A DNA stretch of 61,431 nt, taken from a virus. The notes beneath the pieces are model-generated. The model searched no databases. It was not told the DNA's origin and saw only the letters and a list, made by a program, of their open reading frames with translations. Below are positions 5,609-30,338 of this stretch, piece after piece (position 1 is the stretch's first letter; every line of letters starts with the position of its first letter). The DNA is taken from the IMG/VR virus record IMGVR_UViG_3300045988_127488. One strand, given 5' to 3'. The position numbers were made by a program, and so were the translations under genes.

Positions 5609-5637
5609 CATTCAACACTCAACATTAAAAATAAAAA

Positions 5638-10560: not shown

Positions 10561-10577
10561 AATTCTCAATTTTTCGC

Positions 10578-11255: not shown

Positions 11256-11289
11256 AAAAAGGGACTCGCTGTGAAGCGAGTCCCTTTTT
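11256..11289. terminator. Bidirectional intrinsic terminator
   Basis: aaaaaGGGACTCGCtgtgaaGCGAGTCCCttttt forms a 9-bp GC-rich stem with A and T runs on either side. It lies between convergent gene 10691..11164 and the giant ORF. Confidence 0.85.
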
Positions 11290-11338: not shown

Positions 11339-14300
11339 CTACTCCATTCCGTTCAACGTTTTAAGCAGCTCCTTTCTGGTCTTTCTGATCTCCACCATTT
11401 TGGCAGCCCCATTCGTACCATCCATTTGCTTCTTTGCCTTATTCATCTTCTTCTTGGCAGCAGAGATAGCCTTTCTAGCCGCAAACAGTCGCTTGTTGGT
11501 CTTGCTGTTCTTGAAGGCATTAGCCTTCGCCTTATCAATATCCTTCAAGCGCTGATACTCCTGATAAGCCTCCATGGTTCCGTTCCAGGCGTTCTGTATT
11601 CTCCAGTCCTCCGTCACGTCCTCAGCCTTGGCCGCCATCAGATACTTGCTTTCAGCCTTCTCCATTTCCTTCAAGTCTTCATCACCGTTCAGATAACCCT
11701 GCACCATGTCCAGAGCCTCCTTCTGGGTGAAAGCCTTGTAATCACTCTGCGAGAGGAATTTCTTCATCTTCTGGCGCATCTTCTTCTTCTCCGTGATACT
11801 CTTGGCAGCATCAAAGCGTTTAATAGCCTCCTGTAAGGAAGTTACTCCATCGCTCATTTCTGCACTCTCCAGTGCCTTCACGCTTCCGATGGCAGCCTTA
11901 ATCTGAGCCTCAGCATCAATACCGTTGCGTTGGCAGCTCTGGTAGGTCATTGCTATACCCTCCATGTCACCGCTAAGGATAAAATCCTTGAAATAACTCT
12001 GAGCCTTCCATGGAGAGAAACCCTTAGAAGAAGGGAAGAAGAAATCCACGGCCTTGAACTCCTTGTTCTCCTGGCTCGGAATCAGGAAAGGTGCCCAGTA
12101 CAAAGCATCCTTGTAAAGCAGTCCGATGGTCTTGCCATACTTGCGCTGAATCTCTTGATCCGCATGGCTGGCTTGGAAATCGCTCAGATAGTTTATATCA
12201 TCCAAGGTCATTCTCACCATAGGGTTAGCCTTACCTATCATTCGCTGTACCATAGGTCCAGGGAACTCTAGTTCTCCCTTATGGTTGAAGAGATATTCAG
12301 GAACCTCACGGAACTGCTTACCATGTCTCACATACATTTCTGTACCATCTTCATATCTGCCAAGGAAAATCTTGCTTTGCTGACCAAGGCTGTTGCCTCG
12401 CATCAGATAGTCATACCAATTCATACCATCAGGATAAGCAAGTTCATACATGCTCTTATAGCTTGGGTTGGTCTTTCTGATCTCCTCAGCCTTTTTGCGC
12501 TCCTTCTCCTCGTCCAAGGCACGGAAAGCAGCATTGATGCCATTGGCAATACCCTCATAGAACACCATGAATCCGATACCATAACAGAGTAAAGCAGAAA
12601 TCTGTCTGCTCCTTCTGCCCTCATCCTCCGGTGTAAGAATCCCATGGCCAAGTCGCTTGTAGTAATGCTTGAAGTTCTCAAAGGTTGCCTCATTCCAGAT
12701 AGAGCCATATCCGGTTAATGCCAGGAAGTGGCGTGTAGTAGAAGCATTCCAGTCTGGCGAAAGAAGAACTCGTCCGGCATAGCGCAAGGTTCGATGGCTG
12801 GCACCCAGGATGTCCCAGTGCTGACCGCCAAACATATCGTTCACAAACTGACCGTCCTCGTCCAAAGCCCGGCTCAGTTCCTCCTCAGTCCATCCCTTCT
12901 TCTTGGCACGTTCCTTGGTCTTGTCTGCCCTCATCCGGTAGGTCGCAAGTTTCAGTCCGTCATGGAGGAAATCCCACAAGGCTCTATCCATGCCCTTGTT
13001 GATGAGCGAAAGCATCTGCGTTGCCACCTTCAATGGCATAGTAGCCAAAGCCACCGTTCCGGAAATTTTATTTCCGTCCTTCAACTTCTCCTGCACCTTT
13101 ATCATCGCATCGCGCATATTGTCAAACATGTTCTGAACATCTGCTGCTGCATAGTCGTTGGTCGCTCCAAACTTCACCAGGTGGGTAGCAGCCTCTTGGA
13201 AGTCCTCAGGATTGGCAAAGCAAGGCAGCTCATGGTTCTTCATCGTATCTACAAAGATATACTTCATAAAGTTGGCCATAGCCTTCTTCGGACCAAATTC
13301 CACCATGTTCTGTACCATATAAACCTCCGTCAATGCTCCGGCATGGAAACCGCTAAAGCCCAACTCCAGTTTCTTAGCACTCGAAGCAAGCGTATCAAAC
13401 GCCTTCCAGAAAGGAGAAGACTGATAGCTCTCGAATACTACACCGAATCGGTCTCCGGCACTCGCCTCGCTATAAAGCACCCTCTCCTTGCCAGTGATAG
13501 GATTCTTCACCTTCATCTGCCTAGGCGATACATTATATACCCATACAGGGCCTACGCCCGGAATCTCGAAGTACTTATATTGCTCCAGGTTAAAAGGAGG
13601 CGTAGAAGAAAGCAGTGCGTCAGAAGAAACGATTTCTCCGTCCTCATTCCGCTCTATCACGTTCAATCCGCTCAACTCCTGCAGCATGGTTTTGTTAACC
13701 CAAGCCTCGATATTGCTTCTGCTGTAGTAAGCCATCATCTTCGTAATGTCGGTAGTCTTAGGCACAAGTCCTACGCTGATACCCTCCATCAGGGTACTGA
13801 TGGTTCTCGGCTTCTCGTTAGGGCTTTTTGTGCGCTGCCTATTCTCCACAAAGGTAGCATACGCCTCAGGATCAGATTTCTCTTTATCCCAGATATGGTT
13901 TACATAGTCGGCATTATATCCGGTGTCCTCTCTTAAGGTATGATTATCCTTCAACCAGTCGTAGGTATAGTTATACCAGTCTCTGATAGAATCAATGGCA
14001 GCCTTCATTTCAGGCGAGAGATTCTTGTAGTCGATACCCACAGGCACAATCTGCTGCTTCACCAGTGGCAATACATGTTCGCTAAGAATGTCCGTTCCGT
14101 CAATAGGAACAAAACCTTCCTCGCCCTGATGATTGGCATTGATCACCTGCGCCATCTTGCTGGCCACCTCGCTCACAGCCTGCGGATCATCATATACCTC
14201 CACCTCCTTGCCATCTTTCAGCTCGGTATGCTTCTTGCCAGTCTCAGCAATCAGATCTGCCACGTATGGCTGGATAGCCTCAACATCAGCCGGCTGGATA

Positions 14301-17300
14301 TGGATATGCCCCTTATCAAAAGCGCCAGTGGCATTCAGATCGTGCGCCAGGTCACGCAAACGTCTTGGAGCCTCTATTATATAAGGTATAGCCTCAGCCA
14401 GCTTTTCTGCTCGGTTCGGCTTGCCCTTGTAATCAGAAAGTAACTTGTCAAAAGCACCGCTGTCTGCCATCTTCTCTATTCTGTTCTTCACATCATTGAT
14501 ATAGATGGCATCATCTGCACTCGCCTCCTCCATGTTCTTTCTACGATGGATAACGGCATGCTTCACGGTCTTGGCAGCACCCTCCTTGCTCACGTCCGTA
14601 CTGGTCACCTCAGCCAAGTCCTGCATCACCTGCTGCTCCAGGTCATCAGCCTTCGGATTGGTCTCTGCCGGATAAATCTTACCCTCATACAAGTCCAAAT
14701 CTGCTTGCTGCTGCTCCAGAAGCTCATGTCTGGACAACCAGTCCTCATACTTGCGTTTCACCTCCTCCTGCTTTTTCTTTTCGTAGGCAAACATATCAGG
14801 CATAGGGTCTTCCTGGTCCTTCATGGCTTCCTTCCATTTCTCATATTCGTGAATACGAGTCATGTAGGCACCATCCTCTTCACCTTCCATACGGATAGGC
14901 ATCCCCATAGGTTCCTCGCCTGCAAGATGGTGTCGCTCACGCCAGTCCTTATTGAGCTGTGCCCATTCCTTCTTGCCTGCTTCATCCTTGTCGATGTCGT
15001 AGAACATAGGTGGTTCTGGGTCCTCCTTATCCTCACGTGCATTCTTCCATTTGCGCCATTCCTGTACACGTTTCATATACTGAATGGTGCTTTCACCCTT
15101 CTTCTGGCGAGGCTTGCCATTCTTGGCTCCCTCACCCAGCGAGTCCTTGATTTCAGCATTGCTAGCCTGCTTCATCATGGCTTCCTGCTTCTCCTTAGGC
15201 ATATTGTCCCAAACGTGCAAAGCCTTGCCAGCCTTCATCAGGTAGTATCTCAAATCCTTGTCATTCAGAAGTCCCGGCACACGAATACCCAGTTTCTTCA
15301 AAAATCGGATAAGGTAATGCTTAATCTTAGTCCAAAGAGTAAAGTCCTCAGCAGTCTTAGGACCCTCCTCAGCCAAATGAGCGATATACTCCTGCGTTCC
15401 CACATTCATGCGATCAGGGTTCTTCCAGTCCGGATCATACTCATTTGCAATCTCCAGAATCTTGCCGCGAGTGCTTGCTGCGACAGAATTATAAACGAAA
15501 TTAGCGAATTTTCTCACCTCATCTTCGCCACCCAGCAGCACTTCCATACCCTCATGGCCTATCTTCTCATGAAGCACCGTTCTCTCCGCCTCGCTCGCAT
15601 CAGCACAGTTAGGCAGATAAACATGCACCGTATGAGTCTCCGGATCATACCATCCGGTAGCCCCATTCTTCACTTCACTCAGATAAGCATCCGGAACCTC
15701 ATCCACAGAAGTGTAAACCGTAGCCTCAGCACCACCCAGTTTGTTGGCAGTGTTCACCACCTGGTCACTCACCTTCTTCTGCTTATCAGCATCCCAGTCA
15801 TTCTTGAAGATAGATTTTCCAAGTCGTGCCAGCACATTTCTGCCCGATAAGTCATCCTTATTCAGCAGAGGAGCAATCACACCCTGGGTCAACTGCACCG
15901 GAATACCATTGCCAATGATGGTATGTGCCAAAGATTCCGTCTTAGGCAGCAGATAGTCATCACCAAGTCCGGTAATTCTCGCCAGCACCCTGCCATCAGC
16001 ACGCAACACCTTTCCACCCGGCATGATGATCACGTCACCACTCTTGGTTCTCAGCGTTGGCAGAATCTCATCCCCATAGGCATGAGGAATCTTTCCGTCT
16101 GCATAGGCACTGCCCATCACGTAAAGAGGCTTCTCCACCTTCTGCCAGTCGATTCCGTCAGCCTTCAATCTAGCATCCATCCATGGAGCCACACCGCTTT
16201 CTTTCACCGTCAGAGTAGGAAGAATATCCTCCACAGCCTCTAGCCATCCACCCTTGCGTGGTTGCTTTTTAGGCTTCTCCGGCAGTTCTCCGTCCTTCAC
16301 GGCTCTCACTATCAGTCGCTCCCTGCTGGTATAGCCACCATAGTCTGCGGCATTATACACGTCAGCATCCCATGTGTAGCCGTTCTTATCCAGTGCCTGG
16401 GTGATAATCTTCATCGCCTCAGAGTCCTTGTAGCCCTTCACGTTCTCGATAGTCACCACTCGCGGTTTCACGGCATCAATGAAGTCGGCAGTACTCTTGG
16501 CAGTCTCCTTGTCAAGTTCCACCTCTCCACTATTACTTTTGGCCTGCGAATAGTTCTTGCATACAGGCGAAGCATGGAAATACTCAACCTCACCATCTAT
16601 ATGCTTCACCAGTTCCTTTGGATCCACGTCTCTCACGTCAGCCGTAACAATATGCTGCCCGAAGTTATTGCGATATACACCGCTTATCTTCCGGTCATAT
16701 TCCACGGCCACTACGGGGTCAATAATGCCCTTCAATCCCTCTTCTACCAGTCCACCACCGCTAAAGTAGGTACCAGCCTTCATCAGCGAATCAGGGTGCT
16801 TCTTCAACTTCTGCTCCACGATAGGCGATTGCGCATTTTTACCGTACACCTTAGAATAATGCACACCATCATTCTCGCCTCCTACAATTCTTCCTCTGTT
16901 ATCGGTCTCCACAAACGGCACACCTCGCTTCTCCAACTCTTTTCTCAGACTTGGAGTAACCACATTAGAAGGCATAGTGATATTCTTGCCCTTGAACATA
17001 TCATTAACAATAACATCAGCCACCTCGCTGTCAGGCACAATACGCACAGGCTTATCCCAACGAGAAAGTACCACCTTGCGCTTGCCTGTCAGCTGTCCTT
17101 GGATGATACCAGCCTTCCACTCTACTTCGCCCACGGCATCCTTGGCTTTATCAGCCTTGTAGCCACTGGTCAGCTCGCTCTTTGGCACCTCAACCTCTAC
17201 AGTTACGATGTTAGGGCGATTCTGAGCCTCGCTAAACTGGTCATTCAGTGGAGTGCGAGAAGTATGAAGGTAAGGATTGTAAGCAGCCTTAAGCGACTTA

Positions 17301-20300: not shown

Positions 20301-23300
20301 TTGATAACGCTAAGTTCCTTGGCTGTATCAAGCGGATTCTCCTTGATAGCATCCTTAGCCATCTGTTCCAGGATGGCAGCTCCGTCCTCACCTGTCAAAC
20401 GAGCAAAAGCCTCATCGCAAATCTGCTCATCTGTCAGATGATTATAGTTAGGATCCTTCTTCAAATCGGCAAATAGCTGGGTCTGCATGATGAGTTTATC
20501 ACCATACTCTATAAGTTCCGGATTCATGTTCTTGGCAGCAGTACGCCAAAGATGCTGGTACTCATGAATAGGAGTATTAGGATTCAGATGCTCCTGGTTC
20601 AGCACAATCTCCTTGCCATCAGTGTAGCCATAAACTACACCCTTACCCTGCGCAAACTTGGTATGATCAACTATTTTCATATCCTCAGGCTTGAAGATAA
20701 CATAGTTGGTATCACCTTCCTCTGCACCACCAAAGTTACGACCAGCTTTATACTTGATGCCAGTGTAGCCAATAGAAGACAGGAACTTACTAACTGCACG
20801 ACTAGCATCTACATCTTTCCACTTTTTTGTTCTTCTTAAAGCATACATTAGAAAATCATAGGCATTACCGCCAAATGAACCATCAAAAGAAAAACCACGC
20901 TTTTTAAAGTCGTCAAAATCTATTTTTAATCGCCTTAATTCTTTAATGATTGTATTCTTCTGTTTATCTGTCAAAGGAGCATCCCAATCCAGATAGTTGC
21001 TGCCATTATCATCAGGTATATCCACCTCATAGAGATTATGATATGGCTCAGCCAACTTCTTCATTTCATTGTAGAAGTCAATCTTTTCCTGCTCTGTAAA
21101 CTTGTCATTCATGGCTATTTGCTTATCACCATGCAGGAATGATTCTAGAGTAGGATATTTCTTGGCGAACCTTGTACCATTGGAATGCTGAATGCGATAA
21201 TATGCCCTAGAAGGGTCATTGTCCATCAGAGTAGCATAATTCTTTCCAATCTTCTTAGATGATGTAACATAGCCACCCCAACCAAATGCTTGTGAACCTT
21301 CACCCTCGACCATGTGGTCGAAGTCAAACTCAGAAAAGCTAGCACCAGTACCATGATAAGTGCGTAAGAATCTCACTCCCGGCTCAGCAATAGCCTTCAA
21401 CTGTCTATCCAAATCCTTATATTTCGCAAACAAGGAATCAAGCTTATCTTGATATTTTTCAAAGGATTTATTCCTGCAATCATTCCAAACATCATCAGGA
21501 ATATCGTTTTCAGAATCCAGTCCATGCTCATCCATGTACTCCTTCATCAACTGATTTTGATACTCCTTACGTTCCTGCCCGGTTGACTTATAAGCCTCCT
21601 CAGTCTCCTTAATCTGCTTCTTCAATTCATCCTTCTTACTAGTCTGAGCAGCTATCTTATATGGGTCAAACTCCGAAGGGAAAGAGCCAGTAAGCCCAGC
21701 CACATTGTCCTCAAAGCTCTTGTCGAGATTGAAAACCTTGTAGTTTCCCCACATCAGCCTATTCAGGTAGGTACGTTCCTTTCTTGCCAGTTCCTGCTTC
21801 TGATAGTACTCCGGCATCTTATTCGGATTGCTCATATCCACCACGGCATACTGCGCCCATTTGTTTGGTCGCAAATCCTTGGCAAAGTTATAAGCATTCT
21901 CGGCAGCCTGCTTCTCCTCAGGAGTCTTAATCTTAAATCTCATTTCAGGCTGATTCAGCAGCATGGCAAGATTCAGATTATCCTGCGCATCAGCCACCTT
22001 CTCCATATCCTCGTTGCTAACCACCTTCACCGGAATACCAGCCTTCTTAAGCATAGTAGAAACAGCATCGTAAGCCACCTTCTGCGCCTCCGTCATATCA
22101 GATGGCTTCACCTCCTTCACATCGCGATCAAATTTTGCCTGTTCCTTCTGCACCATAGCATAGTCTGCAAAAGGTTTAGTCTTGCGGTCAGAAGACTCCA
22201 GCCACTTGTCAAAGGTAGCCTTAGGCACAGAAGTAACCTTACCAAGTCCCTTCCAGCCCTTGGAGTAGTTGGCAAGATAAGCCTCTGTAGCAGCCTCCTC
22301 AGAAGGATAGCCATACATCACCTTATGCTCGTCAAACTCACCAGTCTCTGGGTTCACCTGGTCAACAACATAAACGTTACCATCAAAAGAATCAAGGTCA
22401 GCAGCATCATTGATGAACATATCAATATGGTCACCATCCACACCAATCTTGCCCAAGATATAGCCATAAGTATCGTGCATGGTCACGCTCCAAGGCTTGC
22501 CCTGCTCGTCATTACCGCTACGTGTAGTTCCCTTCGGTGTCTCTACAGTAAAGTCATAGCCACCAAATGACAAATGTCCCTTCTTATAGTTACCTGCCTT
22601 CTTCTGAGCCTCAGAAGGGTTAGGCTCAGTCTCGGCAATGGCACTCTTTAAACGTTCTCCGAAGGATGCTTCTTGCGGTAGATGTGAGCCTCGAACAGCT
22701 GAGCCTTCGCCAGGTTCCATGCTGCCAGTCTCTTGTCGCCCTTTGCGTCCGCTATCAGAGCCTTCTCCAATCTCGGACTCAGAAGATGCTTCTCCGTTAC
22801 CAACTTCTTCGCCTTGGCTATTTCCTTCATCAACTCCTCTCCGTGAAGAGTCGCTACCCAGGCTACTGCCTCCTCCATATCCTTCTTCATTGCTTCTGTC
22901 ATCATAATCAGCTAATTCTGGTAAAATTGATTTGACATATTGTTTGTACTCTCGTTCACGATCCTCAATCTCCATCATACGGTCAAATTCAAGTCCATTG
23001 ATGTGATCAAGTTCGCTTTCAGACGGCAAAGATAACTCTTTTTCGTGAATATACGATTTATATTTCTCAATTTCTGCCTGTCTTTCGATAATTTCACGCT
23101 CTTTCTGTGCCTCATAATACTCTTCCTCGCTTGCAAGTTCATCTTCTGCAGCTGCTATGCGGTTCATGAAAGCCACATTTTTCATTTCCTTCACGCTGTC
23201 ATAAGACTTGAACATATCAAGAAGGGTATTACGAACATCCTGGTCGGTATATCCCATATCCAGCAAGTTTACAGGAAGGTCATTATATACCTTCACGGCA

Positions 23301-26300
23301 AATTCGTTAACCGACATACCGGTTCCTTTCTTGGCAATAAGATAATTGAACTTATTAGAATCATACCCCTTGCCAATACCAAACTTAAAATTACTCTTGC
23401 CCAACTCATATTGAAGAGATTCCGGATTCAAGCTATGAGGACTCAAATATTCTGATACTGCCTCTTCAAGAGTCTGAGGAGTCAAGTCCGTAATATCAAC
23501 AGAGGCATCCTTGTATATCTTTATTATTGCTCCAAGGTCATTCTTCTTGATGGCATCAGACACAAGAACCTTACGATGCTCAGAAGGGGTCATCATACCC
23601 TGTTCCTCCATTTCCTGCTGGCTAATTTCTGTTTTATAAAGTTTGCTGAGTTTATTAGCTTGTGCCTTCAAACCCTTTGCTGCAACCGACAAATTAGTCT
23701 GCAGAGCCTCCAGTTGAGCCTTTGTAGTATTCAATTCCATAAGTTGGGTAGGGTCCAGCTCTGTTTCGCCATTGATATACTGATCCAGCATATCATTCAC
23801 ACCATTTATCTTGCGTTCCACATCCTCCTGGGTATGATAAATGTCCTTGCGCTGAGAGGTAATATAGTCGGTAGCCTCATCCATAGTTGGATATTGCTTC
23901 TTCAATTCTTTATCATCAAGTACGAGCACATGGAAATCATCAGATGGCACGATGGCAGTTTCATCAACACCAGCCTTCTCCACCTCAGCCTTGCGCTCCT
24001 CCGTCATTGCTTTCACCTCATCAGGAGTCATCACGCTGTTGCGGATAGTATTCCAGTTCTTGAAACGAGCATCAAGATCAGCAATCTGCTCATTAACCAG
24101 ACTCAACTCATCTTCCACCTTCTTAGCCTTTTCCGGGTCAAGATCGGCATTTGTATCAAGCCAGTTCTGATATTCAGCAGCAGCCTTCCTCTTGTTGGCA
24201 AGTTGAGTCTTGATGTCATCACGGCTGCCATTAACCAGATTCAAAAGTTTGCCATGGTCTTCACCATACTGCTCCTGCAAATAATCAGCAGCCACCTTTG
24301 TATCTGTATCTTTTGAAGAATAATCAGGATGTCCCTCGCTCAATCCCACGATACCATCATTATATCGTTGCTTCTTTTCAGCCTCAGCCTGAGAAACTGC
24401 TTTCTGTTCACGTTCATCGTCCTCGCGATCCAAATGTTCATTGATTGTGTTGTCGAGCGCATTCTTGCGCCATGCTGCAAACTCCTCTTTAGATAGGGGA
24501 AGATAATCTTTGCCATCAGTAAGTACAATCTTTCCGTCCTCGCTATATCCGGCAAAGGTCATGTTGATATTAGCATCACCCTCCTCCATGGCAACTGTAA
24601 CCTGGTCATTCGGTTTCAAACCGCTGCCATCAAACTGGCTGATAAACTGCTTATTTCTTGCATCTTTCTGCTGAGCCACAGCTTTCTCGATGTATTGATC
24701 AAGAGGAACAGGAGTGCCCTTCTCTATAATACTTGCTTTAGATACCTGCTTAATCATAGGCTGTCCCTGCTCATCAGGAACAACAACAAAGGCTCCACCA
24801 TATTCGTTGTCTTTTTTCAGGAACACCTGTTTTCCGCTATCCAGAGTAGCTGGCACGATGTTTCCGTCTTCCGTCTGGTATGGCCAGAGCTGTTCCTTCA
24901 AAGCCTCACCATAGCCATCATCGGCATGCTGCAGAGCATCAATAGCGCCCTTCTTGGCATCCATTGCCTCTACATACTTACTGATAGCCTCTTTTTGTGC
25001 TGGAGTCAAACTACTTGCACGCTGAGCCACAAACTGATCCATATCTCTACCTTCATTATAGGCATTGGCTACAATATCAGGCATCTTCTCGTTATCAGCA
25101 AACGCTCGCTTCAAACGTCCTGTAGCTAAATCACTATTATAATCGATAGCCTGCAAAGCCTCAGAATCCCCATTCTTATAGGCATTCTGTCCCATAACAA
25201 AAGCATCAGAGCCTGCAACCTTTGTCTCAGGACTTGCACCCTCAGCAGAAGAGTTTGAAACGTTTGCAGGGTTTGCAGCAACTTCTGCATCACTCGGAGT
25301 TGGTACGGATTTGGTACGGTCTTGGTACGAAGCAGGTCCCTCTGAAACTGGAGGCTCCTGACCACCAGCAGAACCCTCAACAGGAGATACCGGGTTTTCG
25401 CCTTCAATCCTCTTCTGCTCATTACCATGTGAAGTATTATAGAGATCATCCATCGTCTGCTTCATTTCACGTTTCAGTTCGATGGAGTTGTAAAGCTCCT
25501 TAAGATAAGATTCCACCAAAGGTGCATATTTCTTATCTTTCGACTCCAAAGCCTTACGAAGTGTACCGCGCGCCACGCCATGGGAATCCTCAAACGTGTT
25601 GACAAACTCCCTCATCACAGAACTGTTCTCCAAAGCACTGTCATAATAATGACGATAGGCATTAATCTGCTTCTGCTCCTCATCAGTAAGGATAATACCC
25701 TTCTGCTGCTTATCCATGATTTCCTTGATGGCACCAGCATTCTGATGAAGATAAACCGCTGCCTTATCCTCATCTGTCAATTTCTCACCCATATTATATT
25801 TCTGGGCAGCCTTGTTGTATAAGCCTTCAAGATGCTCCTGCGTAAACTCATTGTGGAACTCACCTTCCAGCACAGAAGCCAAACCAAGAGTCTTCTCATA
25901 CTCCAGTTTCTTCTCATCATTACGTGCAGCATCATGAGAAGAATACTCCTTGCGGTCGATTACGCCTCCATCCTTATTATAGGTTTCCAAATAGTACTTA
26001 CCATCGTCACCTCTATATACCTCGCTATCAATAACAGGCGAGAAAGAAGAAGGTCGCTTGCCTTCCACCACAGCCATCATCTTAGCCTTCAACACCTCCG
26101 GAACACTCTTGTCGTTCATCAGGTTCATATATTTCTGGGTAAGCTGTCCATCAAGTCGCTGGGCATTTTCGCCAACCACGGCATACTCCCCGATACCTAC
26201 CTTCTCAAAAGCATCACGAAGACCATCATAGCCGAATCTCTTCAACTCGGCAATATCCTGATCTGTGAAGTCAAACTTCTTATTAAACTCCCTCGCATCC

Positions 26301-28471
26301 TTGAATCGGGCATACTTGCCCACAAAACCAGGGAAACCAATAGACAAAAGATTAGCACCACTCTCCAAGAAAGTTTCAGCCGCATCCTTGCCTGTAGGCT
26401 TAAAGTTAGGGTCATGCGCCATGCGCTCCAGTATCTGCTGCCCGGTCATGATACCGGAATCCGCAACCTTACCACCAACATCAGCCAGAATATTGGTAGC
26501 CAAACCTCTGCCCTTGCCTACCATGTTGGCAATAGTACCACCTTGCATAATGGCACCTACGGCACTCTGCTTAACCACATCGCCCAAAGTATTGGCAAGA
26601 ATCTTGCCCACTGAAGGATTGTAAACCTTGCCATTCTCATCAAACTGGCCAGTACGATAAATCTCATCAATAGGCTTCGAGATTGCAGACTGACCACCAA
26701 AGGTAACAGCACCATGCACGGCTCCGCTCTTCAAAGCCGCAGCCTTACTCTTGCCGATAAGCACCTTGGCAGCTCGCTCTGCCATCTTGCGCTCCATACC
26801 TTTAGCCATCAAGTCACCAGCCAGTTTGCCCTCAGCCTTAGCCACCATGCTCTTGGTCAACTTGCCACCTGCGGCTCCCGGTAGCCAATAACTCCAGGCA
26901 TCACCTGCAAAGGTCAACGCACCACTAGCCACGTTCTCCCAGAAGCCCGGCTGATACTGCTGATTGGCAATATCCTCCAGCCAGTTCTGATAGTCCGTCT
27001 GCATAGCCTTGCGAGTAATCTTGCCCACAATAGTGTTACCCAAACCAGTCTTCATGATGTACTCAGCACTACCCTTAGGCATCATACCCTTAATTTCCAG
27101 CTGGTCGAGTTCATTCTTAAGAACAGAATTGATCATCGGCTTGAACTGCTTAGGATCACCAGTCATACCGCCATTCAAGCCATATCGCTGCATCACCCTG
27201 AATGCAGCATTGCTCATATCGTTCAGGAACTCCGGATTCCGGTAGAGATTGCCAAACTTCTTCTGCAAACCAGAAAGCACCTTTGCTGGATCCTTAGCCT
27301 CGTTTGCCTCATACTGAGCACCAAGTGCTGTACCCAGACGAAGATTAGCTGGAATATACTGACTTCCTTCCATTCCCTCTGTAAATGCCTTGCTACCTGC
27401 CTCCTGAGCCTTGTTGTACTCATCCACTACAGATGGATTCACATATTTATTAATAACGCTAGAAAGAGCCTCATTGATGTCCTGGTTCATCAGTCTGTCC
27501 TGCACATGCTCATCGTGAGCATAGAGACGAGTGGCGATACCCTCAGCGATGTCACGATAGTTCTGACCATACTTCTGCACAAGGCTCTGCACCATAGCTG
27601 GCTTCAAGAATTGAGCCACATAGTCATCATAGCTGATACCCATGCTGTCAGCCTCCTGCTTCAACTTATCCTGCACGCCATGGCTATACCATTGCGCCCC
27701 GATACTCTGCTCAGCATCCTGCACCGTATCATCAGGCAAAGAAGATACTACCTGGTTAGTTACGTCCATAGCCGAACGGTAGGCATATCTGTGCAAAGCA
27801 GGCATCACCATATTCACTGCCTCCTCATTGCTATTGGCAGTACCATCAGCCAACAAGTCGGCAACCATATTCTCAAAGTACGAACTCTGCTTATCCGGTC
27901 TCTGCTTCCAGTCCTCAATATAGTTGGCAAGTTTGGCATCCATCAACCCCTCATTATTCACCACACCAGTTGGTGTTGTAACAGGAGCCGCATTAGCAGA
28001 TGAAGAAGGAGAAGTTTCTTCCTTCACAGGCTTTTCCTCACCTTTTACAACAGGCTGAGAAATCGCTGGCGATGGCTGATATGTTCCGTTGCTCGTCTGA
28101 ACACCAGTAGGAATCATATCCAAAACTTTTGCTATAAGCCCAGGCTCTTTGTCTATTGTTTCCTGCTTCTTTGCTGGTTGAGCCACCTGCGGCTTAGTCT
28201 CAGTAGAAGCCTTCTGCTCTACACTCTGAGTCGTAGCAGAAGCATCTACCTGCTTACCACCACCAGAAGTAGATGGAGCTGGCTCCAGCACCATCTTGTC
28301 AAAGTCTGCCTGTGTTCCCACATCATAGCCCATGTTCTTTGCCTCATTGTAGTACCAGTCACGATCTTCCTTGTTGTTCAAGTCCTTTTTAAAGTCATCA
28401 TAGCTACCTACCTCATAGCCATTGTTCTTGAACTCATCATAGAAATACTTTCTGTCTCGTTCGTCAAACAT
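11339..28471 (-). CDS. Giant multidomain polyvalent-type protein (5,710 aa), probably virion-delivered
   Basis: A single ATG-initiated ORF of 17,133 nt with no stop. Several enzymatic motifs are embedded in it (sub-features below), separated by charged or coiled-coil linkers. It is the last gene of a late-promoter operon. Confidence 0.9.
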   Translation of the reverse strand: MFDERDRKYFYDEFKNNGYEVGSYDDFKKDLNNKEDRDWYYNEAKNMGYDVGTQADFDKMVLEPAPSTSGGGKQVDASATTQSVEQKASTETKPQVAQPAKKQETIDKEPGLIAKVLDMIPTGVQTSNGTYQPSPAISQPVVKGEEKPVKEETSPSSSANAAPVTTPTGVVNNEGLMDAKLANYIEDWKQRPDKQSSYFENMVADLLADGTANSNEEAVNMVMPALHRYAYRSAMDVTNQVVSSLPDDTVQDAEQSIGAQWYSHGVQDKLKQEADSMGISYDDYVAQFLKPAMVQSLVQKYGQNYRDIAEGIATRLYAHDEHVQDRLMNQDINEALSSVINKYVNPSVVDEYNKAQEAGSKAFTEGMEGSQYIPANLRLGTALGAQYEANEAKDPAKVLSGLQKKFGNLYRNPEFLNDMSNAAFRVMQRYGLNGGMTGDPKQFKPMINSVLKNELDQLEIKGMMPKGSAEYIMKTGLGNTIVGKITRKAMQTDYQNWLEDIANQQYQPGFWENVASGALTFAGDAWSYWLPGAAGGKLTKSMVAKAEGKLAGDLMAKGMERKMAERAAKVLIGKSKAAALKSGAVHGAVTFGGQSAISKPIDEIYRTGQFDENGKVYNPSVGKILANTLGDVVKQSAVGAIMQGGTIANMVGKGRGLATNILADVGGKVADSGIMTGQQILERMAHDPNFKPTGKDAAETFLESGANLLSIGFPGFVGKYARFKDAREFNKKFDFTDQDIAELKRFGYDGLRDAFEKVGIGEYAVVGENAQRLDGQLTQKYMNLMNDKSVPEVLKAKMMAVVEGKRPSSFSPVIDSEVYRGDDGKYYLETYNKDGGVIDRKEYSSHDAARNDEKKLEYEKTLGLASVLEGEFHNEFTQEHLEGLYNKAAQKYNMGEKLTDEDKAAVYLHQNAGAIKEIMDKQQKGIILTDEEQKQINAYRHYYDSALENSSVMREFVNTFEDSHGVARGTLRKALESKDKKYAPLVESYLKELYNSIELKREMKQTMDDLYNTSHGNEQKRIEGENPVSPVEGSAGGQEPPVSEGPASYQDRTKSVPTPSDAEVAANPANVSNSSAEGASPETKVAGSDAFVMGQNAYKNGDSEALQAIDYNSDLATGRLKRAFADNEKMPDIVANAYNEGRDMDQFVAQRASSLTPAQKEAISKYVEAMDAKKGAIDALQHADDGYGEALKEQLWPYQTEDGNIVPATLDSGKQVFLKKDNEYGGAFVVVPDEQGQPMIKQVSKASIIEKGTPVPLDQYIEKAVAQQKDARNKQFISQFDGSGLKPNDQVTVAMEEGDANINMTFAGYSEDGKIVLTDGKDYLPLSKEEFAAWRKNALDNTINEHLDREDDEREQKAVSQAEAEKKQRYNDGIVGLSEGHPDYSSKDTDTKVAADYLQEQYGEDHGKLLNLVNGSRDDIKTQLANKRKAAAEYQNWLDTNADLDPEKAKKVEDELSLVNEQIADLDARFKNWNTIRNSVMTPDEVKAMTEERKAEVEKAGVDETAIVPSDDFHVLVLDDKELKKQYPTMDEATDYITSQRKDIYHTQEDVERKINGVNDMLDQYINGETELDPTQLMELNTTKAQLEALQTNLSVAAKGLKAQANKLSKLYKTEISQQEMEEQGMMTPSEHRKVLVSDAIKKNDLGAIIKIYKDASVDITDLTPQTLEEAVSEYLSPHSLNPESLQYELGKSNFKFGIGKGYDSNKFNYLIAKKGTGMSVNEFAVKVYNDLPVNLLDMGYTDQDVRNTLLDMFKSYDSVKEMKNVAFMNRIAAAEDELASEEEYYEAQKEREIIERQAEIEKYKSYIHEKELSLPSESELDHINGLEFDRMMEIEDREREYKQYVKSILPELADYDDRSNEEGYGGGSSLGSDSSRRGVDEGNSQGEEVGNGEASSESEIGEGSDSGRKGRQETGSMEPGEGSAVRGSHLPQEASFGERLKSAIAETEPNPSEAQKKAGNYKKGHLSFGGYDFTVETPKGTTRSGNDEQGKPWSVTMHDTYGYILGKIGVDGDHIDMFINDAADLDSFDGNVYVVDQVNPETGEFDEHKVMYGYPSEEAATEAYLANYSKGWKGLGKVTSVPKATFDKWLESSDRKTKPFADYAMVQKEQAKFDRDVKEVKPSDMTEAQKVAYDAVSTMLKKAGIPVKVVSNEDMEKVADAQDNLNLAMLLNQPEMRFKIKTPEEKQAAENAYNFAKDLRPNKWAQYAVVDMSNPNKMPEYYQKQELARKERTYLNRLMWGNYKVFNLDKSFEDNVAGLTGSFPSEFDPYKIAAQTSKKDELKKQIKETEEAYKSTGQERKEYQNQLMKEYMDEHGLDSENDIPDDVWNDCRNKSFEKYQDKLDSLFAKYKDLDRQLKAIAEPGVRFLRTYHGTGASFSEFDFDHMVEGEGSQAFGWGGYVTSSKKIGKNYATLMDNDPSRAYYRIQHSNGTRFAKKYPTLESFLHGDKQIAMNDKFTEQEKIDFYNEMKKLAEPYHNLYEVDIPDDNGSNYLDWDAPLTDKQKNTIIKELRRLKIDFDDFKKRGFSFDGSFGGNAYDFLMYALRRTKKWKDVDASRAVSKFLSSIGYTGIKYKAGRNFGGAEEGDTNYVIFKPEDMKIVDHTKFAQGKGVVYGYTDGKEIVLNQEHLNPNTPIHEYQHLWRTAAKNMNPELIEYGDKLIMQTQLFADLKKDPNYNHLTDEQICDEAFARLTGEDGAAILEQMAKDAIKENPLDTAKELSVINKLKEWLKKFWYWTLDTFTKWKPEDIKKMTLEDIRNLVLRDLANGVDPRNVKSRMTKEDAVSLRKQMADNAEQERILEHTEENWLKEFGKDSRVTTPIGSIKLGENQYKKAGRNDRIKRFGLLKPTLERPDVILEKSAPKEGAERQTKYLFIKSFKKADGNKILNYESITVKQGEEEVAISAHQIDPSKVLKELTESKVLWNRFRGDSNSLGENQGSALTPSANNPSGKDSVLNPHSDAKIRNNIETAKGNGGNLSVEDKIMAVSQQFGVDEADVAMYANAIKKGSTAEAARARANIKRHLLQANEDKISSLKELLKYTVPVNNALKENFGDLDAMIEERVKQVEAQRNAMEAARKRAEEEEAKRQKHLEELSVIPDDQLDKQYMDALAKGDDATAREMLDEAARRKGYDDTESAYQGVGAWAAPGNPGYESDKARRDDWESSGSDVNLEDIALGYAPQPDDYFSHPERYSQNTPHGLESVKAINAAIDAIKNGEKDVKVKVYRAVPTSVKEGKLRNGDWVTPSKKYAEMHGTNRLEGKYRIIEDEVPATQLWWDGNDANEFGFDDGKAYKYKNAKNNRKLNDLVTYDDKGDVIPPSKRFNSRKSDVRFMFAGEKGAAEADKAEEQTIRMDNLDVAKQMEVSKKNAKIIKMATGWEKGVDGKWRYEMPDAKIKDMKDIGGGNIVKRFDDDMLWNDGKLTNVIDAPGLFEAYPQLKDVRIDTDAIMNDMPSNGNYNAKTNTITIHADELKYMNSILNHEIQHAIQYIEGFGKGGSPEQMEKEFKEAQDEWKARAYAHELEEKAKELGGEYNQSEVEKALVEEYKDLDMSDELPDKETRIKGFNYFARGYADRSMDDAIKRFRLNESTRSDFDSYKEYLKLAGEVESRNVEKRLGMTDEERRNSLAEETEDVNRDEQIVMNGNDASYSIVKDPETIKKLDKEDTVKVYRAMQVGEDGKLYPPMAAKVKGKFVQPIELGKWEQADERPELADDKGMFTLNKGNGKSLKAAYNPYLHTSRTPLNDQFSEAQNRPNIVTVEVEVPKSELTSGYKADKAKDAVGEVEWKAGIIQGQLTGKRKVVLSRWDKPVRIVPDSEVADVIVNDMFKGKNITMPSNVVTPSLRKELEKRGVPFVETDNRGRIVGGENDGVHYSKVYGKNAQSPIVEQKLKKHPDSLMKAGTYFSGGGLVEEGLKGIIDPVVAVEYDRKISGVYRNNFGQHIVTADVRDVDPKELVKHIDGEVEYFHASPVCKNYSQAKSNSGEVELDKETAKSTADFIDAVKPRVVTIENVKGYKDSEAMKIITQALDKNGYTWDADVYNAADYGGYTSRERLIVRAVKDGELPEKPKKQPRKGGWLEAVEDILPTLTVKESGVAPWMDARLKADGIDWQKVEKPLYVMGSAYADGKIPHAYGDEILPTLRTKSGDVIIMPGGKVLRADGRVLARITGLGDDYLLPKTESLAHTIIGNGIPVQLTQGVIAPLLNKDDLSGRNVLARLGKSIFKNDWDADKQKKVSDQVVNTANKLGGAEATVYTSVDEVPDAYLSEVKNGATGWYDPETHTVHVYLPNCADASEAERTVLHEKIGHEGMEVLLGGEDEVRKFANFVYNSVAASTRGKILEIANEYDPDWKNPDRMNVGTQEYIAHLAEEGPKTAEDFTLWTKIKHYLIRFLKKLGIRVPGLLNDKDLRYYLMKAGKALHVWDNMPKEKQEAMMKQASNAEIKDSLGEGAKNGKPRQKKGESTIQYMKRVQEWRKWKNAREDKEDPEPPMFYDIDKDEAGKKEWAQLNKDWRERHHLAGEEPMGMPIRMEGEEDGAYMTRIHEYEKWKEAMKDQEDPMPDMFAYEKKKQEEVKRKYEDWLSRHELLEQQQADLDLYEGKIYPAETNPKADDLEQQVMQDLAEVTSTDVSKEGAAKTVKHAVIHRRKNMEEASADDAIYINDVKNRIEKMADSGAFDKLLSDYKGKPNRAEKLAEAIPYIIEAPRRLRDLAHDLNATGAFDKGHIHIQPADVEAIQPYVADLIAETGKKHTELKDGKEVEVYDDPQAVSEVASKMAQVINANHQGEEGFVPIDGTDILSEHVLPLVKQQIVPVGIDYKNLSPEMKAAIDSIRDWYNYTYDWLKDNHTLREDTGYNADYVNHIWDKEKSDPEAYATFVENRQRTKSPNEKPRTISTLMEGISVGLVPKTTDITKMMAYYSRSNIEAWVNKTMLQELSGLNVIERNEDGEIVSSDALLSSTPPFNLEQYKYFEIPGVGPVWVYNVSPRQMKVKNPITGKERVLYSEASAGDRFGVVFESYQSSPFWKAFDTLASSAKKLELGFSGFHAGALTEVYMVQNMVEFGPKKAMANFMKYIFVDTMKNHELPCFANPEDFQEAATHLVKFGATNDYAAADVQNMFDNMRDAMIKVQEKLKDGNKISGTVALATMPLKVATQMLSLINKGMDRALWDFLHDGLKLATYRMRADKTKERAKKKGWTEEELSRALDEDGQFVNDMFGGQHWDILGASHRTLRYAGRVLLSPDWNASTTRHFLALTGYGSIWNEATFENFKHYYKRLGHGILTPEDEGRRSRQISALLCYGIGFMVFYEGIANGINAAFRALDEEKERKKAEEIRKTNPSYKSMYELAYPDGMNWYDYLMRGNSLGQQSKIFLGRYEDGTEMYVRHGKQFREVPEYLFNHKGELEFPGPMVQRMIGKANPMVRMTLDDINYLSDFQASHADQEIQRKYGKTIGLLYKDALYWAPFLIPSQENKEFKAVDFFFPSSKGFSPWKAQSYFKDFILSGDMEGIAMTYQSCQRNGIDAEAQIKAAIGSVKALESAEMSDGVTSLQEAIKRFDAAKSITEKKKMRQKMKKFLSQSDYKAFTQKEALDMVQGYLNGDEDLKEMEKAESKYLMAAKAEDVTEDWRIQNAWNGTMEAYQEYQRLKDIDKAKANAFKNSKTNKRLFAARKAISAAKKKMNKAKKQMDGTNGAAKMVEIRKTRKELLKTLNGME
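15200..15760 (-). other. Zincin-like metallopeptidase module 3 within the giant ORF
   Basis: TVLHEKIGHEGMEVLLGG (nt about 15550-15578) contains the HExxxH / HExxGHxG signature. Confidence 0.45.
15880..16790 (-). other. C5-cytosine DNA methyltransferase domain within the giant ORF
   Basis: Motif I YFSGGGL (about 16751-16770). Motif IV-like ASPVCKNYS (about 16558-16570). Motif VI TIENV (about 16439-16450). Motif VIII YTSRERLIV. Motif X IGNGIPVQL (about 15899-15915). Confidence 0.75.
17000..17485 (-). other. Conserved module beginning DTVKVYRAMQ...LYPPM (function unknown)
   Basis: Shares the VKVYRA start signature with the module at 18560..18810. No catalytic assignment is possible from sequence alone. 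Confidence 0.3.
17960..18345 (-). other. Zincin-like metallopeptidase module 2 within the giant ORF
   Basis: GWEKGVDGKWRYEMPD...NSILNHEIQHAIQYIEGFGKGG, with the HExxH at nt about 18020-18034. Confidence 0.5.
18560..18810 (-). other. Module KVKVYRAVPTSV...GDWVTPSKKYAEMHG...ANEFGFD (possible R-S-E type ADP-ribosyltransferase-like)
   Basis: The spacing of an Arg (YRAV), a Ser/Thr-x-Ser (TPS) and a Glu (NEF) is reminiscent of R-S-E ARTs. This is a weak motif-level call. Confidence 0.3.
20250..20650 (-). other. Zincin-like metallopeptidase module 1 within the giant ORF
   Basis: NTPIHEYQHLWRTAAKN has its HExxH at nt about 20552-20566. It directly follows the ART-like module. Confidence 0.5.
20660..21370 (-). 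other. ADP-ribosyltransferase-like module (H-Y-E style signature) within the giant ORF
   Basis: RTYHGTGASFSEFDFDHM, GWGGYVTSS and DTNYVIFKPEDMKIV appear in the order expected for H-Y-E ARTs. Confidence 0.4.
22155..22625 (-). other. Family-I inorganic pyrophosphatase-like domain within the giant ORF
   Basis: FTVETPKGTTRSG...TYGYILGKIGVDGDHIDMFI closely parallels my recollection of the E. coli PPase core, [20 protein letters not shown]. Confidence 0.65.
26440..26950 (-). other. Gly/Ala-rich hydrophobic segment within the giant ORF
   Basis: GFWENVASGALTFAGDAWSYWLPGAAGG...GAVHGAVTFGG...AVGAIMQGGTIANMVGKGRGLATNILADVGG has small-residue helix-packing character. Confidence 0.4.
28292..28456 (-). 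repeat. Two tandem copies of an approx. 25-aa motif at the N-terminus of the giant protein
   Basis: RKYFYDEFKNNGYEVGSYDDFKKDL is followed by RDWYYNEAKNMGYDVGTQADFDKMV. Confidence 0.6.
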
Positions 28472-28492: not shown

Positions 28493-29743
28493 TTACTTTC
28501 TTCTCGATGGTGGAACCTTACTTCCGCCTCTACGTGAAGGAGGTACTTTACTGCCACCTCTACGTGAAGGAGGAGTCCGGTCATGCTTCATCTTTGCCCT
28601 AGCGTAAGCAGATGCCTGCTGTCTGTTCTTCTCATTAGCCCAAGTGCCACCTCTGCCATCATTACCACCGATTGCCATACCATTGTGTGTAGCCCATTCA
28701 TTTACATGCTTCTTGAAAACAGGGTCATTCACATACCTGGTGTTGAAACCATCCGCCTCCTTCTGGTTAGCATTCCTCTGATTCTGTCCCTCTGTTTGCG
28801 AATTGATATGCTTAACTTGCGCTCCCTTAACGTTAACGCTAGCATTATGATCAGCAGCTCCGGCATTGGCATTATTAGCTTGAGCATCAAGTAACTTTCC
28901 CTTCTTGCCTCTCAAAGCCTCCTCAGTCTCTTTCTTAGAAGTACTGAGTGCAGCCTGTGCAGCAGCAGCATTACCTCTCTCCTGCTCTGTCTTAACCTTA
29001 ACAGGAGTGAGAGCATCCGTTTGATTCTTCTGTGATGCACGATATTCAGCTAGTTTCTCATTTGCCTTTGCAGCAGCCTCTGCCTGCATCTGTGCCTGCT
29101 TGTCTTGACGGTCCTTCCAGATATTCACCATCATTTGGTTATATCCCTTGGCACGAAGAGCCTCAGTAGCCTCTCTTATCTTGCGTTGTCGATCAGTAAG
29201 TTCTTGTGCAGATTCTATTTTTTGCGATGGAGCACCTTGAACTGTACCAAAAAAGTTACCCAAGTGCATAAAAAGATTTCCCCATTGTTCCCATTTTGCT
29301 TTCCTCTCCGCTTTCTTCTTTAAGGCTTCATTGGCTGCTACGGTTTTATCTCCATCACCCAGAGTATTGAGCCATGGCAAAAAGACTGACCAGTTTCCAT
29401 CACCATTCTTCTGGTAGTCCCTCATGATGTCATACGGCTTCATCTGCTGCAAGATAGGATTCTGTTCTATCTCGGCATAAGGTCTGCTCCAGTCTATCTT
29501 GATACCTTGGTTAGGCTCCACCTTGGTAACTTCCTCGGTTGGCTGCTGGGCAAAAGATTCCTTGCCACCATTCCCAGTAATACCGGTTGTATCTATGGCT
29601 GTACCCTTTCCCGGTTCTGTATCAGTTGTCTGAACTGGTACTGCAACCTCCGGCTTCACCGCATTATCATCAGGAAAATCAGTAATAGGAGTTGCTGCTG
29701 TTGCCGGACGTTTAGGAGTTAAATCATCCAATATAAATCCCAT
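28493..29743 (-). CDS. Hypothetical protein (Q/A/K-rich coiled-coil, basic repeat tail), possible internal virion protein
   Basis: 416-aa ATG ORF lying 21 nt upstream of the giant ORF. The C-terminus has PPSRRGGSKV repeats. Confidence 0.55.
   Translation of the reverse strand: MGFILDDLTPKRPATAATPITDFPDDNAVKPEVAVPVQTTDTEPGKGTAIDTTGITGNGGKESFAQQPTEEVTKVEPNQGIKIDWSRPYAEIEQNPILQQMKPYDIMRDYQKNGDGNWSVFLPWLNTLGDGDKTVAANEALKKKAERKAKWEQWGNLFMHLGNFFGTVQGAPSQKIESAQELTDRQRKIREATEALRAKGYNQMMVNIWKDRQDKQAQMQAEAAAKANEKLAEYRASQKNQTDALTPVKVKTEQERGNAAAAQAALSTSKKETEEALRGKKGKLLDAQANNANAGAADHNASVNVKGAQVKHINSQTEGQNQRNANQKEADGFNTRYVNDPVFKKHVNEWATHNGMAIGGNDGRGGTWANEKNRQQASAYARAKMKHDRTPPSRRGGSKVPPSRRGGSKVPPSRRK
28496..28573 (-). 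repeat. 30-nt tandem repeat (2.6 copies) encoding PPSRRGGSKV-PPSRRGGSKV-PPSRRK
   Basis: Units lie at 28514-28543 and 28544-28573, with a partial unit at 28496-28513. Read directly from the sequence. Confidence 0.85.
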
Positions 29744-30290: not shown

Positions 30291-30338
30291 CAAAAGTAAT
30301 GCGTTTTTCTTACCTGTCTGTGATAAGTTCCGCAACTT
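30291..30338 (-). promoter_or_regulatory. Phage-specific promoter (AAGTTGCGGAACTTATCAC-N21-TACTTTTG) for the 30261-to-11339 operon
   Basis: Same box, the same 21-nt spacer and a canonical -7 box. Confidence 0.65.

Follow-up and report, generated by a model that had tools for sequence, protein, structure and literature searches.

Polyvalent proteins, as described by Iyer, Burroughs, Anand, de Souza, and Aravind in 2017 (PMC5512222), carry 2 to 15 effector or enzymatic domains on a single polypeptide that often exceeds 2,000 amino acids (aa). The same work predicts capsid packaging for the polyvalent proteins of phages, and discusses their processing by metallopeptidases (PMC5512222). Another described system is gp47 of the Stx phage phi24B (Traversvirus), a protein of 2,811 aa that was detected in virions by proteomics, is absent from the cryo-electron microscopy (cryo-EM) map, and has been proposed to be an ejection protein. 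Here we describe a gene at 11339..28471, on the minus strand of IMG/VR virus record IMGVR_UViG_3300045988_127488, a stretch of 61,431 nt that is called the window below. An initial annotation had reported an uninterrupted, ATG-initiated open reading frame (ORF) of 17,133 nt, strand unstated; the ORF listing and our own translation both return the same frame, with one terminal stop and a product of 5,710 aa, or about 628 kDa. The gene takes up 27.9% of a 61,356-bp genome, close to the 28% first given. We propose, with a probability of roughly 0.65, that its product is a capsid-packaged, co-ejected polyvalent effector carrier.

Like the polyvalent proteins of Iyer et al. (PMC5512222), the window protein is multi-domain, longer than 2,000 aa, and encoded next to a portal-terminase packaging system. 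Its content (InPase, ART-PolyVal, PBECR2, LPD23, a DNA methylase, and HExxH and HExxxH modules) and the shuffling of domains between relatives are also typical. Assignment to this class had been suggested from motifs, and matches to PF18823, PF18760, PF18838, and PF18810, each scoring better than its curated cutoff, plus PF00145, bear it out. Over the 5,710 aa we count at least five predicted, Pfam-supported domains and five recurrent modules (Table 1). Unlike the described examples (PMC5512222), however, the protein has no MuF, portal, ArdC-N, or relaxase anchor, and its family is defined by a constant N-terminal scaffold and a C-terminal block that lie outside curated libraries. The family layout, new here, is fixed: a scaffold of about 1,750 aa and the InPase domain come first, then shuffled cassettes, then a C-terminal block of about 1,450 aa. 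A broad family of such giants is undescribed as far as the literature we searched shows, although the kind itself has been known since 2017.

The closest functional analogue is phi24B gp47 (vb_24B_48, 2,807-2,811 aa), which is not an orthologue. As we judge the window phage to be, phi24B is a temperate short-tailed phage, with a genome of about 58 kb, and its giant polyvalent protein has LPD domains and a peptidase; a Q/N-rich ORF of about 420 aa (421 aa) lies directly upstream. In contrast, gp47 is half the size, and its gene sits at the far end of the late region, away from the portal. Orthology was rejected on a score of -1 bit for the profile of the C-terminal core and a best blastp E-value of 0.025. 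Homology of the 416-aa and 167-aa ORFs that precede the giant gene to the phi24B upstream genes was likewise unconvincing, with an E of 0.003 for a 42-aa alignment and a very small search space. The two giants share extreme cysteine depletion. The window protein has 7 Cys in 5,710 residues (0.12%), compared with 1.57% in the other proteins of the phage, a 13-fold difference (binomial P = 6e-30); of the seven, the Cys at aa 3971 belongs to methylase motif IV, and the one at aa 5296 is an invariant residue of the C-terminal core. The depletion is family-wide, with a median of 0.17% in 45 giants, and gp47 has 2 Cys in 2,807 aa (0.07%). Such a composition is consistent with passage through a narrow channel in the unfolded state, a link that we infer.

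Other precedents share parts of this plan. P1 DarB, of the Dar system, which contains a methyltransferase, and T4 Alt, an ADP-ribosyltransferase, travel in the phage head and are injected, so that DNA is protected or the host reprogrammed (PMC5512222). In its 2,255 aa DarB combines an N6-methylase with a helicase, whereas the protein here has a C5-methylase and no helicase; a match of phrog_10089, 'DarB-like antirestriction', to the giant protein runs via the InPase region and not through a Dar-specific domain. An InPase-type domain also occurs on a virion protein, the portal gp19 of Pseudomonas phage Pa193, in which residues 529-765 are not resolved in the cryo-EM map; the window InPase domain matches the C-terminal domain of this portal (PDB 9b41) at E 1.6e-19. 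A portal-InPase fusion in BcepF1 is cited by Iyer et al. (PMC5512222). In both of these the domain is fused to a myovirus portal, whereas here it is embedded in a separate giant protein. The internal capsid proteins of podoviruses (N4 virion RNA polymerase; T7 gp14, gp15, and gp16; P22 gp7, gp20, and gp16) are very large or multiple, and are ejected before or with the DNA. The N4 polymerase is also discussed in PMC5512222. The window phage too has three consecutive genes, for products of 167, 416, and 5,710 aa, but without an RNA polymerase or lytic transglycosylase domain, and without a sequence or fold match in PDB.

The constancy of the two ends and the turnover between them can be read from the relatives. 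Of 44 unique close relatives, 93% have aa 1-1750, 98% the InPase domain, and 100% the C-terminal block (aa 4250-5710). By comparison, the cassette at aa 2450-2600 is found in 50%, that at aa 3350-3650 in 41%, and the methylase in 68%, with Kinase-PolyVal or other domains in its place elsewhere. A Pfam scan of the roughly 3,333 aa upstream of the core in 15 close-relative genes found InPase in 14, the methylase in 10, LPD23 in 8, PBECR2 in 7, and ART in 3; rarer were MuF_C (PF18819) in 2, and PBECR5 and Kinase-PolyVal in 1 each. Payloads differ even between phages that are 85-95% identical elsewhere. We found no long DNA repeats flanking the variable cassettes that could act as recombination substrates. 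In distant giants, the scaffold is 21-32% identical to that of the window protein and always N-terminal, InPase is 45-63% identical, and the effector modules occur in shuffled order. The size of the protein had been called unusual, which is true of phages generally but not within this family, whose members reach 7,483 aa. The phage group is abundant, with 192 IMG/VR matches in addition to prophages in isolates and metagenome-assembled genomes (MAGs).

Five domains in the middle of the protein have library support. The initial annotation had named a family-I pyrophosphatase-like core, an ART-like module, and a C5-cytosine methyltransferase from short motifs, and profile searches uphold all three; they also reveal PBECR2 and LPD23 (large polyvalent protein associated domain 23), which had been overlooked. 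Every motif string that it listed is in the translation, at the following aa positions: YGYILGKIGVDGDHIDMFI at 2002; YHGTGASF at 2372, GWGGYVT at 2397, NYVIFKPED at 2589, and HEYQH at 2636; VKVYRA at 3223 and again at 3666; HEIQHAIQY at 3480; YFSGGG at 3902, SPVCKNYS at 3968, TIENV at 4007, TSRERL at 4048, and GNGIPV at 4187; and HEKIGHEG at 4301. The ART-PolyVal match clears its cutoff when the module is scanned by itself and is sub-threshold when scanned within a 771-aa segment; it falls in two stretches that flank an insert of about 100 aa, and the C-terminal half is absent from about 50% of relatives. A putative H-Y-E triad (YHGTG / GWGGY / ...KPED) is assigned from reading of the sequence alone. 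The methyltransferase match to PF00145 is nearly full length (Table 1), motifs I, IV, VI, VIII, and X are present in order, and M.HhaI is matched in PDB over residues 35-313 at E 8e-7. The Pfam model for MPTase-PolyVal has no match in the giant protein, and neither does Phage_Mu_F (PF04233), the portal-binding N-terminal MuF domain of head-incorporated effector carriers of the MuF/SPP1 gp7 type, in any of its segments.

Three zincin-like modules had been proposed as well. The HEIQHAIQY module has weak profile support from zincin families that agree with one another, and the E, H, Q, and E of its motif, HEIQHxIQxxE, are nearly invariant; Foldseek matches to abylysin, PprI, and CapP are non-significant (E of 2 or more for abylysin and PprI), and the cassette is carried by 41% of relatives. 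The other two are conserved motifs for which profiles gave no support. HEYQH, in a module that recurs at shuffled positions in distant giants, has no Pfam match at E up to 1-5. HEKIGHEG, kept as HEKLGHEG in the relative L169 at 41% identity, likewise finds no Pfam family at E up to 1-5, and none of the profiles tested supports it as a peptidase; a zincin-type peptidase is nevertheless plausible from the motif, and an HEXXXH variant has been reported for polyvalent-protein metallopeptidases (Iyer et al. 2017, PMC5512222). Two further modules had been described as starting with VKVYRA. The strings are there, but the modules are not homologous to each other: they share a 17-aa junction only, blastp of the second against the first gives E 0.14, and the sole DNA in common is a 51-nt junction (D3). 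Paralogous repeats were rejected for the two VKVYRA and the three HExxH modules alike, with a best pairwise E of 0.14 and no internal protein repeats. The first VKVYRA module is well modeled by AlphaFold2 (AF2; pLDDT confidence 73-91) and recurs in distant giants at 40-44% identity; Foldseek returned no significant PDB fold match for it. The second, for which the alignment was too shallow (pLDDT about 25-30), recurs in other phage giants. Neither finds a Pfam family at E up to 1-5, and NCBIfam likewise gave no match.

The N-terminal scaffold has only 33 of 1,930 alignment columns conserved at 93% or more, mostly Gly, Pro, or Ala, and no catalytic-type motif, which fits a structural role. Module-sized queries from it found no Pfam (E up to 1-5), PHROG, or NCBIfam match, and the 50,697 deposited phage genomes searched by tblastn contained no match to the N-terminal or the C-terminal region. 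The initial annotation's description of about 1,900 N-terminal and 1,500 C-terminal aa as uncharacterised thus stands, since neither region has a library match. The Gly/Ala-rich hydrophobic stretch that it mentioned is located inside the scaffold (Table 1); no 19-mer in it exceeds the hydrophobicity threshold.

Within the C-terminal block, the conserved core, an undescribed domain, includes two hydrophobic segments, aa 5139-5157 and aa 5291-5312. Sequence and profile searches that included distant homologues gave the core no match in Pfam (E up to 1-5), PHROG, NCBIfam, or PDB, and Foldseek of both AF2 models against PDB found nothing significant. The AF2 model of the block (pLDDT 67) does match LPD-annotated viral proteins in BFVD at probability 1.00, one of them an LPD38 podovirus protein. 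An exhaustive profile search with the core against 1.84 billion representative proteins detected it in 1,696 protein clusters at E up to 1e-3, and in 292 at E up to 1e-30. Among the full-length matches listed, which are as long as 7,483 aa, the core is C-terminal, and 45 of the best 150 matches are 3,346-7,483 aa long. The core also occurs as a stand-alone gene of 940-967 aa (corresponding to aa ~4855-5525, 25-29% identity) in prophages of Gastranaerophilales/Melainabacteria and rumen MAGs, where it sits in a cluster with major head, tail, and terminase genes.

Window positions 1-75 and 61357-61431 form an exact 75-bp direct terminal repeat, and the window therefore represents a complete circular genome of 61,356 bp. 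No tRNA genes were found in it. The host is Segatella (Prevotella) copri: the C-terminal module is found in prophages of S. copri MAGs and in the complete chromosome of S. copri strain G8 (NZ_CP146523.1), and also, at 35-42% identity, in MAGs of other Prevotellaceae and Bacteroidaceae. The phage is temperate, as it has integrase, portal, terminase, and capsid genes in one genome and a prophage in S. copri G8. Judging from the families of its capsid and portal proteins, it is likely short-tailed; in relatives the portal is annotated P22_portal and the capsid protein SU10_MCP. Counting the domain inside the giant protein, the phage has three methyltransferases.

In the mechanism we propose, the giant protein would be synthesized late from the three-gene unit, and a few copies would be built into the capsid of a short-tailed, P22/SU10-like temperate S. 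copri phage, to leave with the DNA through the portal and tail channel. The N-terminal ~1,750 aa and the C-terminal block of ~1,450 aa would be structural or delivery parts, responsible for capsid incorporation and possibly for an envelope-spanning conduit or membrane insertion, while the middle would be a swappable payload of early-acting effector enzymes. Of these, InPase may hydrolyze nucleotide or pyrophosphate, ART may ADP-ribosylate host targets, PBECR2 may cleave RNA, and the C5-methylase may shield the entering genome against restriction; between one and three peptidases of zincin type may release active fragments by cleaving the chain. We infer packaging and ejection from synteny, Cys depletion, and the phi24B precedent, and expression timing, processing, and each enzymatic activity are predictions of the same order. 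A more speculative extension, with the odds somewhat against it, is that the C-terminal block (aa ~4229-5625) is a previously undefined capsid-targeting/ejection module that, with the N-terminal scaffold, could be a universal "delivery handle". With it, gut phages, those of Bacteroidales included, might fill the capsid with swappable anti-defence enzymes that total several thousand residues and would then enter the host as an unfolded, Cys-free thread; strain-level reshuffling of the payload would be part of an arms race with the defences of S. copri.

Several lines of evidence point toward packaging. The gene lies in the morphogenesis region, upstream of the portal gene and on the same strand, with only a small opposite-strand ORF and a terminator between; the order of giant gene and then P22-type portal is kept in relatives, and the stand-alone core homologue is found among major head, tail, and terminase genes. 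The genome has an SU10-type capsid protein and no tape-measure candidate. Precedents exist in phi24B gp47, in Pa193 portal gp19, and in the predictions of Iyer et al. (PMC5512222). Cys depletion is common to the family giants and gp47, and Foldseek ties the C-terminal block to LPD-annotated viral proteins. Other findings weigh against packaging or against parts of the mechanism. Pfam scans of the segments of the giant protein show no MuF or portal fusion, and in blastp, profile, and PDB searches neither gp47 nor any solved ejection protein proved homologous to it in sequence. Confidence in the AF2 models is moderate to low (pLDDT 67 and 55), and the BFVD matches have low TM-scores, 0.15-0.39. 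The tail genes are mostly unannotated, and the morphotype is judged from the capsid and portal families only. In methylase motif IV, SPVCK, Val stands where Pro usually precedes the catalytic Cys, the usual form being (P)PCQ, and given this motif methylase activity is not certain. Finally, a polypeptide of 628 kDa is a heavy cargo for a capsid that holds about 61 kb. The N4 virion RNA polymerase, at 3,500 aa, shows that packaging of such cargo is feasible.

The missing packaging domain would be no puzzle if the protein were polyvalent but unpackaged, made and acting inside the infected or lysogenic cell, for instance in late host takeover, in superinfection exclusion, or as a polyprotein from which intracellular enzymes are derived. 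The gene is next to the integrase-proximal end of the prophage, a frequent site of morons and lysogeny-expressed genes, and Iyer et al. noted a third class of polyvalent proteins without clear transfer context (PMC5512222). We nevertheless consider this alternative unlikely. The gene adjoins structural genes in the same orientation, the stand-alone homologue of its C-terminal core is embedded in head/tail clusters, and the family-wide Cys depletion is seen also in the virion-associated gp47. A restriction-protecting methylase and an ART would be most useful if delivered with the DNA, as are P1 Dar and T4 Alt (PMC5512222), and the phage already has two stand-alone methyltransferases for intracellular use. 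It is far less probable still that the phage is long-tailed and that the gene encodes its tape measure, or a different protein of the tail lumen, to which effector domains have been added. The initial annotation saw no tape-measure gene, and PHROG/Pfam annotation of the ORFs of the genome detects no other tape-measure candidate; the amphipathic Gly/Ala-rich stretch of the N-terminal region, the amount of helix predicted there, and weak Foldseek matches between tape-measure proteins and the model of the C-terminal block (E 0.1-0.5, probability no higher than 0.13) would suit such a protein. But tail tube, sheath, and chaperone-frameshift pair are likewise undetected, the gene is outside the tail module, between the integrase side and the portal, and the SU10-type capsid, with a P22-type portal in relatives, indicates a podovirus. 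By the rule of thumb of about 1.5 Å per residue, 5,710 aa would imply a tail of about 850 nm. Near-identical phages encode versions of anywhere from 4,451 to 5,910 aa, a variability that a length ruler does not allow, and the protein holds globular enzyme domains.

A reader may suspect that a frame this long is an artefact of chimerism or misassembly in the contig, or that a pseudogene in decay has been taken for one frame. We judged integrity by comparison with relatives, in place of read mapping. An IMG/VR scan with the C-terminal 893 aa as query found 192 confirmed relatives, and one with the N-terminal 900 aa found 123, mostly on contigs of 58-64 kb. At 79 of 80 IMG/VR loci, the frame of the C-terminal match is open across all upstream sequence available, at least 4,226 codons. 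N- and C-terminal loci were joined only where an overlap of 7.7-12 kb was identical, which gave 47 full genes; 46 of these independently assembled relatives have one uninterrupted ORF of 4,451-5,910 aa, and the remaining one has an early stop, at codon 305 in a single IMG/VR genome (L102/L033). That stop, and a frameshift near aa 4269 in L001 (L001 ~9880-9890), where the methylase cassette is absent too, speak for such an artefact or pseudogene. In a distant relative, L002, the gene is split into two ORFs of 3,288 and 1,798 aa with a 4-nt overlap (L002 9941). These rare interruptions may be natural or may stem from assembly. A word-indexed protein search that matched only fragments, of about 3,100 aa at most, first suggested that such genes are split, but the short matches may be genes cut at contig ends, and the exhaustive search gave full-length giants, 45 representatives of 3,346-7,483 aa with the same layout. 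A prophage copy sits in the complete S. copri chromosome. A rough Nei-Gojobori-type count against 12 relatives gives nonsynonymous to synonymous ratios (pN/pS) of 0.10-0.35 along the whole gene: 0.26 in the scaffold, 0.12 in InPase, 0.31 in the mosaic middle, 0.16 in the C-terminal block, and 0.105 in its core. Low values in every region indicate purifying selection over the entire length. Assembly artefact and pseudogene are therefore excluded as far as comparison allows, and what probability remains for them is negligible. An open frame of 5,710 codons cannot have arisen by chance; we estimate about e^-270, from about 3 stops per 64 codons.

A phage that spends more than a quarter of its coding capacity on one protein, with a payload that varies between near-identical phages, offers a natural catalogue of counter-defence and host-takeover enzymes, and the gene may serve as a marker of strain-level phage-host arms races. 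The interest for specialists goes beyond size, to the fixed end modules, the stand-alone core in structural clusters, the strain-level turnover of cassettes, and the Cys depletion. Curated libraries would gain two large domain families once the constant modules at the N- and C-terminal ends are defined. The authors of the phi24B work asked about the organisation of a protein exceeding 3,000 aa inside a capsid and about its exit; the present family would make this question tractable. Should the C-terminal module indeed be a delivery handle, phage capsids could be loaded with cargo by means of it.

Table 1. Features of the giant gene, of its product, and of the surrounding phage genome, with window coordinates.
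Feature	Coordinates	Strand	Evidence
N-terminal scaffold, aa 1-1772	23156..28471	-	family-constant, without library match
Gly/Ala-rich amphipathic stretch, aa ~500-720, inside scaffold	26312..26974	-	34% G+A in aa 501-600
Acidic Gly/Ser-rich low-complexity linker, aa 1773-1930	22682..23155	-	net charge -16 in aa 1801-1900
InPase, polyvalent-type family-I pyrophosphatase-like OB fold, aa 1954-2092	22196..22612	-	PF18823 E 2.5e-51
ART-PolyVal ADP-ribosyltransferase, aa 2369-2604	20660..21367	-	PF18760 41.3 bits (cutoff 31.2), E 3.4e-10
HEYQH module, candidate zincin metallopeptidase, aa 2606-2771	20159..20656	-	motif kept as HEYGH/HEYAH in relatives at 24-32% identity
PBECR2 predicted RNase, aa 2807-2924	19700..20053	-	PF18810 E 1.9e-7, 31.8 bits (cutoff 27.1); 7/15 relatives
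First VKVYRA module, compact alpha/beta domain, aa 3102-3332	18476..19168	-	phrog_2579 E 3.8e-20
LPD23, aa 3333-3395	18287..18475	-	PF18838 E 1.8e-12
HEIQHAIQY module, probable minimal zincin, aa 3430-3625	17597..18184	-	weak DUF6782, SprT-like, and eCIS_core matches (sub-threshold Pfam)
Second VKVYRA module, aa 3644-3854	16910..17542	-	phrog_13543 E 3.6e-17
C5-cytosine DNA methyltransferase, aa 3903-4199	15875..16765	-	PF00145 E 4e-27, positions 7-319 of 324
HEKIGHEG (HExxxH) module, aa 4229-4430, opens constant C-terminal block	15182..15787	-	phrog_14770 E 2.7e-11; 100% of relatives
Charged helical linker, aa 4431-4817	14021..15181	-	long helices in AF2 model; 26% D+E in aa 4501-4600
Conserved C-terminal core, aa 4818-5625	11597..14020	-	>100 invariant residues; pN/pS 0.105
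Basic helical C-terminal tail, aa 5626-5710	11342..11596	-	net charge +13 in aa 5601-5700; helical in AF2
Bidirectional intrinsic-terminator-like hairpin	11256..11289	.	perfect 15-bp stem, A-run and T-run flanks, ~50 nt downstream of giant gene stop
416-aa ORF, basic C-terminal PPSRRGGSKV repeat	28493..29743	-	conserved upstream in 47/47 relatives
167-aa ORF, Gly-rich hydrophobic termini	29758..30261	-	conserved upstream in 47/47 relatives
Candidate promoter of three-gene unit, TACTTTTG, fits -7 box TAnnTTTG	30291..30298	-	~30 nt upstream of 167-aa ORF
SU10-type major capsid protein	2154-3722	-	profile annotation
Terminase	5638-7827	+	PHROG and Pfam annotation
Portal	8497-10569	-	PHROG and Pfam annotation
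Integrase	30930-32396	-	PHROG and Pfam annotation
Stand-alone C5-methyltransferase	37117-38475	+	phrog_363, E 2e-70
Replication initiator	38520-39905	+	PHROG and Pfam annotation
Second DNA methyltransferase	42324-43292	+	phrog_67, E 2.5e-41
Tail and collar-fibre-like proteins	59644-61365	-	minor-tail PHROGs; segment resembles 'Tail collar fibers, gp4', PDB 9d93, E 9e-14

The co-oriented unit runs from the 167-aa gene through the 416-aa gene to the giant gene. The initial annotation had placed the giant gene last, behind two small Gly-rich or basic proteins; order and composition are as it said, while "small" does not suit the 416-aa ORF. Q, N, K, and A are abundant in the product of the latter, which has a tandem basic repeat (TPPSRRGGSKVPPSRRGGSKVPPSRRK) at its C-terminal end and matches nothing in Pfam, PHROG, or NCBIfam scans. 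TAnnTTTG is the Bacteroidetes -7 promoter consensus, to which the candidate in Table 1 conforms. For the unit, to which the initial annotation had assigned a late-type promoter, this Bacteroidetes-like box was the only such element seen. Genome-wide, the full consensus TTTG-N17-23-TAnnTTTG occurs at chance level, and for a Bacteroidota host a sigma-70 promoter scan carries no meaning. A 157-aa ORF on the opposite strand (10691-11164, +), located between giant gene and portal and without an NCBIfam match, is also called in the relative L001, and the hairpin at 11256-11289 is common to it and the giant gene.

Among the N-terminal loci L083-L162, many IMG/VR prophage-derived contigs stop about 3.9-4.3 kb upstream of the start of the giant gene, that is, in window coordinates, just past the integrase gene, and for this reason the attachment site is probably near 32.4-32.8 kb. 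GC content falls to 33-36% across 32-36 kb of the window.

Elsewhere in the genome, the sole megablast match is a 157-nt methylase fragment in Bacteroides phage BS-TP4. The second-largest gene, a 962-aa ORF (47066-49954, +) that closes the plus-strand early block, matches only phrog_32516, of unknown function, at E 5e-120, and has no Pfam or PDB match. In the tail-side block, the 205-aa protein at 53100-53717 (-) contains DUF7841 (E 1.8e-15). JGI/IMG and ENA already include the exact 5,710-aa sequence, on two contigs, and name it only 'site-specific DNA-cytosine methylase', that is, by one of its at least ten domains.

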